Below are positions 31,592 to 63,940 of a stretch of DNA of 64,000 nucleotides, one piece after another. Below the pieces are notes generated by a model. The model ran no database searches, was not told the DNA's origin, and worked only from the letters and a program-made list of their open reading frames with translations. Each line of letters starts with the position of its first letter. The stretch's first letter is position 1. Origin of the DNA: a virus. The stretch covers positions 31,598-95,597 of the IMG/VR virus record IMGVR_UViG_3300036770_002165; one strand, 5' to 3'. The position numbers and the translations under genes were made by a program.

Positions 31592-33681
31592 TTACCTTTA
31601 GCCTCCGCCCAGCTAGCTGCTGAGTGACAGGACACCTTAAGTGGGATGCCCTCATATGTTACTCCATCACCCATAGCCGTAACCAGCAGGTTCATCAAGT
31701 CGTCTGCCTGGCCCTGCTCTACAAGGACGACGAGTTCGTCGTGTACCTGTACCAGCAGCTTTGCCCCGTGAGGTGATAGTGCGTCGTAAACATCGATCAT
31801 TGCTTTCTTGCAAATGTCAGCAGCAGACCCCTGGACTACGGCGTTTACGGCTTGCCTTTCCGCGCGCGCTCGAAGCTGCTGATCAGTAGATACAAGATCG
31901 TTGAGGTGGCGACGACGGCCAGAGAGGGTACTAACATAGCCCTTAGACTTTCCATAGGATATAACCTCTTGCTTCCATTTAGTTATTCCAGAAAACTGTC
32001 TATAGTACTGGTCAATAACAAACTTAGCATGCTCTTCGTCAATGCCCGTTGTTCGGGCAAGCTTCTGAGCCCCACCACCGTAGGCGGTTAGGAAGTTAAC
32101 GCCTTTGCCTAGCTGCCGCTCTTCTGGGGTGATCTGCTCTACTGGCTTATTGAGGCACAGCGCAGCAGCGCCGGAGTGGATGTCCGCCCCCGTTAGGAAG
32201 AACTCGCTCATCTTTACGTCGTGGGAGAACATGCACATGACCCTAAGTTCGATCTGGTCGTAGTCGGCAACGAGCAGTTCGTAACCTTCCGGGGCCACGA
32301 ACAGGCCTCGTACGTGGCTGTCGCGAGGGATATTCTGCAAGTTCGGGTTGCTTGATGAAAGACGCCCGGTGGCCGTACGGTGCAGGTGGAACGATGGGTG
32401 CAGACGACCGTGGTTTAACTTTGGCAGCAAACCGTCAACATATGTTGACACCAGCTTTTTGGTTTCAGCCCACTCCAACATGAGTGGCACTACTGGGTGC
32501 TTAGTCTCTAGTTTACGAAGTGACTCCTCATCAACAGATGGCTTACCGCTGGGAGTGGTTTTTGATGGCTTGAGACCAAGTCCGCCTTCCCTTTTCTTGT
32601 TGAAAAGTAATTGCTGCTTATGCCTCACGCTGTCGGGGTTGAACCCGGGCGGCGCGTAGTTCATCATTTCAAGGTTGATCTCGTTAAGGCGCTGCTCTAA
32701 CTCTTTGCCAAGTTTGGTCATTGACCTCTGGTTAACCGGGATGCCCGTGTCTTCCATGTCCATGAGCACGCGTAGTACAGACATGTCCTGGCGGAGAGAA
32801 GCAAGGATCTCTGGAGTCTTAATAACCTTTGCGTACAGCTTTTTGTACAAAAGCCATGTCCACCTAACGTCCAGGTGGACATAACGGAGAGCCTCTGTAA
32901 ACGAGGTTTCCGTGATCATCGCTCCTAGTTTCCCGTCACGATGGTAGGCATTAAACCCATCGAAGTTGTGAGCGATCAGATGCTCAAGACTGTACTCAGT
33001 CAAGTTCTCATTCAGCACGTGCTGCAGCAGCATCGTATCAAGGAAGGGGCCAGGGGGAAGGTCACCACCGAAGTATTTACGTACTGACCTGGTGTCAAAC
33101 TTTACGTTATGCCCTACTTTGACAATGGTGTCATCAAAGAATATGGGGCGCAGGGCATCAAATACCTCTGACGGTGACAGTTGCTTGGGGGGCTGGCTGT
33201 ACACGGCTGGTTTGTAATACTTAGCCTTAGCCTTAGATTCCTTGCCGTTCTTAAGTATGGCGCGGTAGCCGGGGGGCGGAACCGTTGAGCCGTCACCGCG
33301 TTCAGCTGGTTCTAGCATTGCCCCGTTGGGGTGCCCCATAGGGATGGCCCAAGACTGGTTATCCGTAGCTATACCAATCCAGAACACGCTGTTGCGCAGC
33401 GGATCCAGAGCAAGGTTGTTGCGCCACCGATTGACGATGATCTCCCGTGCCCGAGCAAGGACATCGGGGTGGGTCGTCTTGAGGGTGGCTAGGTGATCTT
33501 GCCACTCACGCTCAATCCACTGCTCTACGTCTGGGTGGCGCTCTATGGAACCGAGTGTCTCTACGTCAAAAGCAAACGCCCCGACGCGTTGAACTTCGGC
33601 AACTATCTGGCGCAGCTCTTCTACGGTGGAGACGAAGCAGGGGGCCGTGTAGCCCCCTGCTCCTACCATCTCTGTTGTCAC
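31588..33681 (-). CDS. polA: DNA polymerase family A (3'-5' exo + polymerase)
   Basis: FDVET, HNVKFD, TGRLSSSNPNLQNIP, DYDQIELR, K.VNF..AYG, QVHDE. Confidence 0.97.
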   Translation of the reverse strand: MTTEMVGAGGYTAPCFVSTVEELRQIVAEVQRVGAFAFDVETLGSIERHPDVEQWIEREWQDHLATLKTTHPDVLARAREIIVNRWRNNLALDPLRNSVFWIGIATDNQSWAIPMGHPNGAMLEPAERGDGSTVPPPGYRAILKNGKESKAKAKYYKPAVYSQPPKQLSPSEVFDALRPIFFDDTIVKVGHNVKFDTRSVRKYFGGDLPPGPFLDTMLLQHVLNENLTEYSLEHLIAHNFDGFNAYHRDGKLGAMITETSFTEALRYVHLDVRWTWLLYKKLYAKVIKTPEILASLRQDMSVLRVLMDMEDTGIPVNQRSMTKLGKELEQRLNEINLEMMNYAPPGFNPDSVRHKQQLLFNKKREGGLGLKPSKTTPSGKPSVDEESLRKLETKHPVVPLMLEWAETKKLVSTYVDGLLPKLNHGRLHPSFHLHRTATGRLSSSNPNLQNIPRDSHVRGLFVAPEGYELLVADYDQIELRVMCMFSHDVKMSEFFLTGADIHSGAAALCLNKPVEQITPEERQLGKGVNFLTAYGGGAQKLARTTGIDEEHAKFVIDQYYRQFSGITKWKQEVISYGKSKGYVSTLSGRRRHLNDLVSTDQQLRARAERQAVNAVVQGSAADICKKAMIDVYDALSPHGAKLLVQVHDELVVLVEQGQADDLMNLLVTAMGDGVTYEGIPLKVSCHSAASWAEAKGK

Positions 33682-61985: not shown

Positions 61986-61993
61986 TTGCTACC

Positions 61994-62245
61994 TCAGAGG
62001 GTGTCGTAGATGTTTCCTGACGCCCGCAGGTAGTTGAAGAGGTCCTTGGGGAGCTTGTAGCGCTTACCATCTTCAAAGTTGTAAGCAGTACGGCCCCAGA
62101 ACATCTTCCAGGTTCCCTTAACACGGGCGTTTACGAGATTTGCGTCGGCAGCCATTGCGATTACCGGCTCTTCGACAACTGGTTCTCCGTAAACCACAAT
62201 GTCTTCTTCTACTTCAACGAACTCTGGATTTGTTTTCCGAACCAT
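61994..62245 (-). CDS. small head-associated protein (tentative)
   Basis: AGGAG RBS; YNFEDGKRYK.P. Confidence 0.6.
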   Translation of the reverse strand: MVRKTNPEFVEVEEDIVVYGEPVVEEPVIAMAADANLVNARVKGTWKMFWGRTAYNFEDGKRYKLPKDLFNYLRASGNIYDTL

Positions 62246-62274
62246 TTTAGCTCCTATTGGGTACATAAATGAAG

Positions 62275-62304
62275 ATGGTGGGGGTGGTTACCCACCCCCA
62301 CCAT
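62275..62304 (-). terminator. hairpin after endonuclease gene
   Basis: ATGGTGGGGGTGG/CCACCCCCACCAT. Confidence 0.7.
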
Positions 62305-62328
62305 ACTACATCATCCGGCCTCTGTGGC

Positions 62329-62793
62329 TCAGGAAATGGCACCACCGAGGTATCTTATGGCTGATAGTAGTAGGTTTGGATTATCTTTAAAATGTCCTAA
62401 TCCAGAATTGCAGTTAGTACAGAGTAGGCCCCGTACGCAGTTTCCGCAAGATGTAGGACCCGAACAACATGCATGGTCGTGGTCTACTGATAGACGACTT
62501 GTAGGCAGACTGCTTAATACAGTACCACAAACAGCACACTCACCATTTTGTTTTGCAAGTAAATCGTCGTATTGATCTACTGTTAAATTAAACCGCTTAA
62601 GTCTCTGGCGTAGCTTTTGAGCGTTGTATAGATCTGGGTTGTTGTTAATCCAGTTTCGTTGTTTTATTATCCCGCATGACTTGCAGTATGGTTGTATTTT
62701 TAATTTACTTTTTGAAGACTTACTTTTGTGATACTCAGTTAGTGGTTTTTCAGTCTCACAGTTGGGACATTTCTTGGTGATCTCGTCTGACAT
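62329..62793 (-). mobile_element. Endonuclease VII-family free-standing homing endonuclease
   Basis: Q.G.CAVC...VDHDH...VRGLLC..CN.GLG..KDN; AT-rich relative to flanks. Confidence 0.88.
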
Positions 62794-62810
62794 GCCTTTA
62801 GAATAACATG

Positions 62811-62840
62811 GAAGAAGGGGGCCAACTGGCCCCCTTCTTC
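62811..62840 (-). terminator. hairpin after major capsid gene
   Basis: GAAGAAGGGGGCCA/TGGCCCCCTTCTTC. Confidence 0.7.
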
Positions 62841-62860
62841 GCAGTAACTATGAAGTTCGA

Positions 62861-63940
62861 TCAGGAGATCGCCCCTCCAAGTGTATTCAGGATGACTCGT
62901 GACTCGTGAGTGATGACACCGAAGCCCCAGATGGCGTACCAAGCGAGACCGTGCTCACGACCGAAGTCGATGACGCCACCGTCGCGGAGTTCAACTGGGA
63001 GTGCGATGGCATGACCAAAGGCGTTGTCACCGATCATGATGGCGCTGTAGGACTCAGCGTCGGGAGCCTGTGCGCCACCGGCCACTGGATCGAGGTCAGC
63101 GGGAAGGGAAAGACCCTTCTTGACCTGGGTGGTCTCAATGAACACCACGTCGTAGAGACGCCCGATTTCACCAAGCATGAAGTTGCCGGGGGCGGCGTAC
63201 TTGGTGACTTCGATGAACTCTGGCCAGTCGCGGAGGCTACGGGCCTGTGATGGGTGCACGAAGCACACGTAGGTGTCGCCAAGACGGGGGATGTTCTGAC
63301 CGGCGAGGACCTCGACAGCGTCCTTGATGGAGGCTGGACTGAGGTAGCCAGGGGCGCTGGCTGTGCCGACAGTACCCGCATCGTATGGGCTGATTGCGCC
63401 ACGGGTTGTCGCGGGGTTACGACCGAAGACAACGCTTGGAGCAACGGCAGAGCCGCCACCGAAGGGAACGCCGTTGGCGTACAGGGTGTTACGAGCCTGG
63501 ATGTCCATGCTCTGGGCCATGTGACGACCAAGGAGACGTGAGGCGGAGGCCATAACGTCGTCGAATGAAGCATTAAGCAACAGTTCGGTAACGGCAACGG
63601 CCTGACCATGCTCAGTCACGGTGATCTGAATCTGGCTAGCTGACAGGGCTACTGGCTCCATACGCACACCTTCGGTGAGTGTTGCACCGGTGCTCTCGTT
63701 TACGGCGAGGTTGGTGTAACGCATGAAGTTGATGGTGAGACCTGGCATAACGCCAAGCTCGGTCTTCTTTACAGCAAACTGCTCGAACCGTAGTACGGGC
63801 ATGGCCTGGAAAAGAATTTCCTTTGACCAGATCTGCTGAATTGCTGGTGAAAGAGTTGCGTCACTGGAATAACCGGTCGTAGTAATGCTCTGAAGACCGG
63901 CTCCGGTAACCGCACCTCCTGCGGGGGCGGGAAATGCCAT
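62861..63940 (-). CDS. major capsid protein (N4-gp56-like)
   Basis: L.EG...EHG.AV..TE; YV.FVHP.Q..L; GEIG...V.FIET; DFGR. Confidence 0.9.
   Translation of the reverse strand: MAFPAPAGGAVTGAGLQSITTTGYSSDATLSPAIQQIWSKEILFQAMPVLRFEQFAVKKTELGVMPGLTINFMRYTNLAVNESTGATLTEGVRMEPVALSASQIQITVTEHGQAVAVTELLLNASFDDVMASASRLLGRHMAQSMDIQARNTLYANGVPFGGGSAVAPSVVFGRNPATTRGAISPYDAGTVGTASAPGYLSPASIKDAVEVLAGQNIPRLGDTYVCFVHPSQARSLRDWPEFIEVTKYAAPGNFMLGEIGRLYDVVFIETTQVKKGLSLPADLDPVAGGAQAPDAESYSAIMIGDNAFGHAIALPVELRDGGVIDFGREHGLAWYAIWGFGVITHESRVILNTLGGAIS

Follow-up and report, generated by a model that had tools for sequence, protein, structure and literature searches.

A putative homing endonuclease gene that interrupts the 3′ end of a phage major capsid gene and carries a replacement gene end

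Endonuclease genes at the ends of essential genes

To our knowledge, homing endonucleases are thought to get inside essential genes only by means of an intron or an intein, and otherwise to sit between genes. Here, we describe a locus in a stretch of 64,000 nucleotides of viral DNA (positions 31,598 to 95,597 of the IMG/VR virus record IMGVR_UViG_3300036770_002165), hereafter the window, in which a gene for an endonuclease VII-type nuclease interrupts the major capsid gene within its final codons. The window belongs to a 95.6-kb metagenome-assembled record with terminal repeats. The arrangement would represent a third route into essential genes, namely the invasion of a coding sequence without an intron or an intein by an element that carries a spare gene end.

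The closest known analogue is provided by the mobile endonuclease open reading frames (mORFs) of fungal mitochondria, which form 'gene hybrids' with atp6, atp9, cox2 and nad3 in Glomus sp., with atp9 in Rhizopus oryzae and with cox2 in Mortierella verticillata (PMC3630166). An mORF in atp6 of Allomyces macrogynus is attributed in the same paper to Paquin et al. 1994. As in these hybrids, the endonuclease gene in the window lies in the 3′ end of an essential gene, where an inserted copy of the C-terminus is in phase with the core and the native C-terminus is stranded downstream of the endonuclease. Likewise, the native copy is closest to the relatives, while the inserted copy has diverged in DNA and is conserved in protein. 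The phage element would therefore work like an mORF, although it is not a member of those families: its nuclease bears an Endo VII motif instead of LAGLIDADG or GIY-YIG, its host genome is that of a phage and not of an organelle, and the duplicated piece comprises 6-10 codons in the phages studied here as compared to ~17 to >90 in the mORFs (spans in Table 2 of PMC3630166). Moreover, unlike in the mORFs, the phage nuclease invariably runs on into the native end, from which it takes its stop codon and terminator, and the cassette in the window brings a replacement terminator hairpin. The mitochondrial trick would thus extend to viruses and to a different nuclease family, with capsid, portal and terminase genes as targets.

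Among phage nucleases, F-CphI of cyanophage S-PM2 resembles the window nuclease in being phage-borne and free-standing, with a C-terminal Endo VII motif behind an N-terminal region (PMC6083498); the likeness as assessed here is one of motif and layout. However, the gene next to F-CphI contains a group I intron, whose insertion site is the target of the enzyme; F-CphI is not located within a coding sequence, and no gene end is duplicated. A further parallel is offered by mobE, which splits nrdA in phage Aeh1 according to a reference in PMC2988022, and by T4 mobA, which goes with the gene 60 bypass element (10.1101/2022.08.31.505936). Both share with the window a free-standing phage nuclease in an essential coding sequence, the lack of an intron or intein, and an accompanying feature that keeps the gene working. 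In those cases, the product is made as two polypeptides or a gap is bypassed by the ribosome, whereas the spare gene end in the cassette keeps the capsid protein of the window in one piece and unaltered. The seg and mob genes of T4 (SegF, SegG, SegB) also place a nuclease by conserved genes and show a sporadic distribution, and their spread is inferred to proceed by break repair in co-infection; but they lie between genes, and immunity is conferred by target polymorphisms (PMC2988022, PMC2330249). No account of a phage homing endonuclease with a duplicated gene end turned up in our searches of open-access papers, in the review on T4 mobile elements (PMC2988022) or in the ICP1 nuclease paper.

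The capsid gene end and the empty site

All genes at this locus are encoded by the minus strand. The ORF of the major capsid gene (62861..63940) specifies 359 amino acids with the C-terminal end ...NTLGGAIS; its native body, codons 1-346 (62903..63940), matches Pfam PF25209 (E 2e-9), and the protein is ~60% identical to the major capsid proteins of Streptomyces phage BRock and its kin. It is followed by the ORF of an endonuclease VII-type (DHHRN / F-CphI-like), putative free-standing homing endonuclease of 154 amino acids (62329..62793), which ends ...RYLGGAIS. As an initial sequence-only reading of the window had pointed out, both proteins end with LGGAIS and a stop codon, encoded by CTT GGA GGG GCG ATC TCC TGA in the capsid gene (62861..62881) and by CTC GGT GGT GCC ATT TCC TGA in the nuclease gene (62329..62349). 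The codon comparison agrees with that reading in that five of the six shared codons differ between the copies, every difference being synonymous, and the longest run common to both copies is 6 nt. Both reading frames are intact in the window. The AT-richness ascribed to the endonuclease gene was likewise found, as the G+C content of the nuclease body is 39.5% versus 58.5% for the capsid gene, and 33% versus 64% at third positions.

Contigs from four public runs were aligned on positions 61990..63100, where stretches without contig cover in the runs X2 and X5 were not counted. In X5, a freshwater metagenome from a different study, a contig of 193 nt joins 62883..63009 (3 mismatches in 127 positions) straight to 62350..62285 and skips exactly 62351..62882, i.e. 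532 bases. At this junction it reads ...AAT AC|C CTC GGT..., which is an intact capsid gene with the native end. Because the contig lacks exactly these bases, the inserted cassette (62351..62882) consists of one base, six codons, a stop codon, a spacer of 67 bases and 443 bases of the nuclease ORF, and hence holds a replacement capsid end, a hairpin and the body of the nuclease gene, which has no stop codon of its own. The replacement capsid end (62861..62882) begins with the last base of codon 353 and continues through codons 354-359 (LGGAIS) to the stop; the spacer (62794..62860) contains a hairpin of its own and a weak ribosome-binding site before the nuclease ATG. The 22 bases of the native capsid end, stop included (62329..62350), now provide the final codons and the stop of the nuclease ORF. 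The insert is real beyond a single assembly, since carrier contigs from two studies have its junctions: in X4, from a third study, an 820-nt contig with ~95% identity across 62161..62981 spans the insert and both junctions, and contig pieces in X3 run across the right junction.

A scan of IMG/VR yielded 80 capsid loci with 84-94% amino acid identity to the window capsid protein, of which 58 distinct relatives entered the codon alignment. In 80 of the 80 relatives no nuclease gene separates the capsid gene from its downstream neighbour, and the empty-site contig likewise lacks the insert; in the relatives, the capsid stop is followed by a gap of 37-218 bases (to the start of the next-gene match) and then by the homologue of the next gene. 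The insertion at the capsid 3′ end that had been proposed, with a recoded tail and a terminator, is thus borne out by the empty site as well as by the insert-free relatives.

These relatives also reveal which of the two ends is native. Most of their capsid genes carry GGT GGT or GGT GGC codons at the end, and the ending GGA GGG GCG, which the sequence-only reading did not expect in insertion-free relatives, occurs in none of the 80. Over the last six codons and the stop, the nuclease-fused end differs by one base from the relatives L016, L020, L021 and L023; in L016 the capsid gene ends CTT GGT GGT GCC ATT TCC TGA, again one base away from the version predicted for endonuclease-free relatives, and the predicted hairpin follows. 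Past the capsid stop of L016, the intergenic sequence, the hairpin and the ribosome-binding site align base for base with the sequence downstream of the nuclease, and the 83 bases 3′ of the nuclease ORF, for which L016 is the best match, also align with the sequence after the capsid gene in L015, L007 and numerous further relatives. The homology between L016 and the window nuclease is confined to the last 22 bases of the ORF, which gives the same right boundary as that in the empty-site contig. Conversely, no relative comes closer than 3 bases to the inserted end, all differences being synonymous. Among the 58 distinct relatives, GGA at codon 355 was never observed, GGG at codon 356 is present in 2% and GCG at codon 357 in 5%, and no relative has a counterpart of the 67-base spacer downstream of its capsid gene. 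Because the nuclease-fused end and the sequence that follows it match insert-free relatives, and the spacer matches none, the comparison at the DNA level identifies the nuclease-fused end, along with the terminator behind it, as native to the capsid gene, and the present end of the capsid gene as having arrived with the insert. The fusion of the ancestral tail in frame to the nuclease had been anticipated from the window sequence. A chance likeness of the two LGGAIS ends was considered and ruled out, given a background of 0-1 shared residues and DNA homology that runs past the stop.

In addition, each end is followed by its own terminator-like hairpin, in line with the earlier reading. The cassette hairpin (62840..62811) has a 13-bp stem and a 4-nt loop (-30.2 kcal/mol, z -4.4), as does the native hairpin (62304..62275; -36.9 kcal/mol, z -3.8). 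Both are classified as terminator-like on the minus strand by the terminator scan, and each folds better than all of 200 shuffled sequences. The native hairpin belongs to the capsid-downstream intergenic region (62246..62328), which also contains the ribosome-binding site of the next gene (62250..62255).

Unusual codons extend to the left of the junction. We scored the frequency of the window's own codons among the relatives that encode the same residue, and codons 347-357 form the lowest-frequency 11-codon window (0.172 versus a median of 0.536; rank 1 of 348), a rank of modest statistical weight because the windows overlap. With regard to the proposal that the last ~16 capsid codons are atypical, the score therefore upholds it in part, for codons 347-357. 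In line with this, the eight closest relatives are identical at 88-94 of the preceding 100 nt and at 27-31 of the last 39 nt, with the protein unchanged. The unusual synonymous codons from codon 347 to the second base of codon 353 (62883..62902), left of the insertion point, may represent a co-conversion tract or lineage-specific variation; they fall within the 127 nt, with 3 mismatches, that the empty-site contig covers on this side.

The nearest relative switches across the insert: it is L005 for the capsid gene (88% nucleotide identity) and L016 for the right flank (76% nucleotide identity), where L005 is not among the eight best matches, so that the nuclease sits on a mosaic boundary.

The nuclease and related inserts

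The nuclease matches Pfam PF02945 (Endonuclease_7) over residues 65-149 with 77.5 bits (cut-off 23.6; E 7e-22), and it also matches T4 endonuclease VII (1e7d, E 3e-5) and the restriction enzyme Hpy99I (3fc3, E 6e-5). Its catalytic region aligns to residues 16-71 of T4 Endo VII. The DHHRN motif comprises CX2-4C, DHDH, a conserved Arg and CX2C followed by Asn, with D40, H41, H43, R54 and N62 in T4 Endo VII; the residues of this motif are essential in the cyanophage homing endonuclease F-CphI, and a C-terminal position of the motif marks the endonuclease clade, while an N-terminal position marks the resolvase clade (PMC6083498). In an alignment of seven homologues C86, C89, D104, H105, H107, R121, C125, C128 and N129 of the window nuclease are invariant, as are the N-terminal cysteines C9, C12, C37 and C40. 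With the catalytic motif at residues 79-138 of 154, i.e. C-terminal and behind the four-cysteine N-terminal region, the protein has both the DHHRN motif and the placement described for the endonuclease clade (PMC6083498).

A protein search returned two nucleases, P0002 and P0003, that are 76-77% identical to that of the window, 154 amino acids long and end YLGGAIS, and a third, P0004, that is 58% identical and ends YMGGAIA. GGAIA is a variant of the capsid end found in several of the capsid relatives. The 48% identical homologue P0006 ends YLGS, without a capsid tail, and the natural end of the nuclease family accordingly lies just after the conserved Tyr-Leu. Judging from these tails, a capsid-site nuclease lineage appears to have diversified and yet kept the capsid tail. 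Single-protein and alignment queries of IMG/VR returned no closer relative of the capsid-site nuclease above ~56% local identity, and a metagenome scan with a generic motif gave no nuclease with >54% identity among the matches listed.

We then asked whether the layout recurs at other genes. For this purpose, 194 distinct homologous nuclease ORFs from three scans were surveyed and their tails were compared with the respective upstream gene. Ten of them share a tail with it, and all others share 0-1 terminal residues. The shared tails comprise 10 residues in L293, where the upstream gene encodes the large terminase, 9 in L286, 6 in L261-L264 and five of eight in L256; three residues are shared in L089, L303 and L305, with a tail protein X gene downstream of the last. 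Without exception, the ten native tails are read in phase and finish at the nuclease stop, and when the three frames around each stop were inspected for native tails out of frame or past the nuclease's own stop, which this inspection was able to detect, only one spurious 3-residue match was obtained. The ending LGGAIS is absent outside the capsid-site lineage among the 194 ORFs, so that the possibility raised by the earlier reading, of unrelated EndoVII proteins with this ending, did not materialize among the surveyed homologues.

At the portal site, the capsid relatives L018 and L030 carry nucleases with 39% identity to that of the window directly after the portal gene (PF05133). Portal protein and nuclease both end RVPDEE in each of them, and the nuclease-fused copy together with the following sequence matches ~45 insert-free relatives at the end of the portal gene and in the intergenic region behind it. 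The in-gene Gln-Arg-Arg codons of the portal gene are CAA AGA AGG in L018 and CAA CGA AGA in L030, as opposed to CAG CGY CGT in almost all others. These two diverged phages have the junction at an identical base position. Moreover, comparison of L017:722-751 with L018:1643-2133 reveals that L017 equals L018 minus exactly the 461 bases between two perfect 16-nt repeats; its flanks are 95-98% identical to L018, and it has kept the unusual portal codons of L018. L017 thus probably represents the scar of a lost homing endonuclease insert, removed by recombination between the two ends.

At the terminase site, represented by L293 (identical to L325), the nuclease shares the 10-residue tail with the large terminase gene, and none of the 26 relatives fetched has an insert at this position. 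The nuclease-fused end and the sequence behind it match L326 and L327, which are the nearest phages without an insert. In contrast, neither the in-gene end (CGT AGA CGC AGT versus AGA CGC AGA TCG) nor the spacer matches them. The polarity predicted from the window, with the nuclease-fused copy being the native one, was hence borne out in two independent systems. L293 belongs to phages of ~111 kb, and the design accordingly occurs in these as well as in the group of the window.

A homing model and its alternatives

The insertion, its exact limits, the identity of the native copy and the recurrence at three genes are observed. They are very probably explained by a homing endonuclease of the Endo VII-motif class that entered the capsid gene with a cassette supplying a replacement end, whereby the native end became fused to the nuclease. 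The mechanism is modelled on the free-standing homing endonucleases of T-even phages (PMC2988022) and on the fungal mitochondrial elements. The insertion point directly follows the second base of codon 353, so that 22 bases of the original ORF, counting the stop codon, lie beyond it. The mobile unit carries a second copy of the last six capsid codons and the stop, which leaves the capsid protein unchanged because it codes for the same peptide in other codons, as well as a substitute hairpin with the dimensions of the native terminator. The nuclease ORF reads in frame into the displaced native end and uses the native stop, terminator and downstream signals. During co-infection, the enzyme is predicted to cut insert-free capsid alleles at or near the ...AAT AC|C CTC GGT... 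junction; repair of the break from the insert-bearing genome would copy the cassette, for which homology would be provided by the capsid gene on the left side and by the native end together with the intergenic region on the right. The carrier would escape its own enzyme, as the insert divides the site and 6 of 18 positions in the right half are re-spelled. In addition, the low identity between the two ends of the carrier (longest run 6 nt, as compared to 16 nt in L018) should hinder deletion. The consistent in-frame reading has one possible explanation in that ending at the native stop leaves the downstream expression signals as before.

Several points weigh against this interpretation. Cleavage, its site, immunity, homing and present-day activity are inferred by analogy. 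The capsid-site insert is carried by a single IMG/VR genome, and the evidence for its spread between lineages at this site is confined to protein tails. The X4 carrier contig lacks one base at 62551, which would break the nuclease frame (a single contig, depth 7.5), and this may reflect either the decay of some copies or an assembly error. The excess of unusual codons left of the junction tops a ranking of overlapping windows and may be ordinary lineage variation. Similarly, the replacement end may be the diverged capsid end of a donor phage that was not selected for immunity; its A- or T-ending codons would follow if the donor was a phage of lower G+C content. Finally, ~95% of the surveyed homologues are without the layout, which is therefore not a property of the whole family.

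An alternative would be an insertion by ordinary illegitimate or mosaic recombination, with an enzyme that serves the phage, for instance as a junction resolvase or packaging helper like T4 gp49. Such a role would suit a protein whose Pfam family is that of T4 endonuclease VII and a nearest relative that differs on each side of the insert (L005 versus L016), as at the mosaic boundaries common in phages, the more so as cleavage of the empty site by the nuclease is deduced by analogy. Yet 80 of 80 close relatives manage without a nuclease at this site, and a catalytic motif placed C-terminally, after an N-terminal region rich in cysteines, is the mark of the endonuclease clade and not of the resolvases (PMC6083498). 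Nor is an in-frame design at three essential genes, with ten of ten tails in frame, expected of chance recombination. We therefore regard this explanation as unlikely.

The two ends could also have arisen as a target-site or tandem duplication upon insertion, identical at first and drifted since. The ends are indeed direct repeats that flank the insert, and those of L018 keep a perfect 16-nt run; but drift is disfavoured, because it predicts the opposite polarity. All relatives differ from the copy that is still under capsid selection, the freed copy lies within one base of some of them, all five differing codons are synonymous, and the terminase site shows the same polarity. Duplication followed by drift is thus largely refuted by the polarity at the capsid and terminase sites, and we consider it very improbable. 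Least credible of all is an assembly artefact, in which a phage was wrongly joined to a second phage or to an unrelated contig in a metagenome-assembled record with a sharp change in composition at the insert, given that the independent contigs in X3 and X4 (other samples and another study) span both junctions, that three related proteins from other assemblies carry the capsid tail, and that both reading frames are intact.

With homing by a nuclease that brings its own spare gene end as the preferred interpretation, a more general reading has about an even chance of being correct: a lineage of Endo VII-motif homing endonucleases in actinophage-like viruses may have a dedicated 'cut and rescue' design, in which a stopless ORF is placed in frame in the last 6-10 codons of essential virion and packaging genes. 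The targets would be capsid, portal, terminase and a tail protein, each provided with a re-spelled spare end and sometimes a spare terminator, and translation would terminate at the stop codon native to the invaded gene, whereby the expression signals further downstream are left unchanged. Re-spelling would confer immunity as well as protection against deletion, and L017 would be the outcome where this protection was too weak. The design resembles engineered 'cleave and rescue' gene drives, to which it would be a natural parallel, and it could explain some of the local anomalies in codon usage and some of the mosaic boundaries seen where phage structural genes end. For a test system, sequences are at hand of the empty site, of the carrier junctions and of the probable scar allele L017.

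The gene downstream of the cassette (61994..62245, minus strand) belongs to the virion module and is the neighbour of the capsid gene in all relatives. It may be a further target of the design: at L303:2711-3534 a homologous nuclease follows a homologue of this gene, and both end DTL, with only these three residues being shared. The longest ORF of the gene in the window starts at 62266, within the tail of the terminator hairpin. The start used in the relatives is the ATG equivalent to 62245, which lies behind AGGAG (62250-62255), and the start was moved from 62266 to 62245; the gene product is therefore probably 83 rather than 90 amino acids in length.

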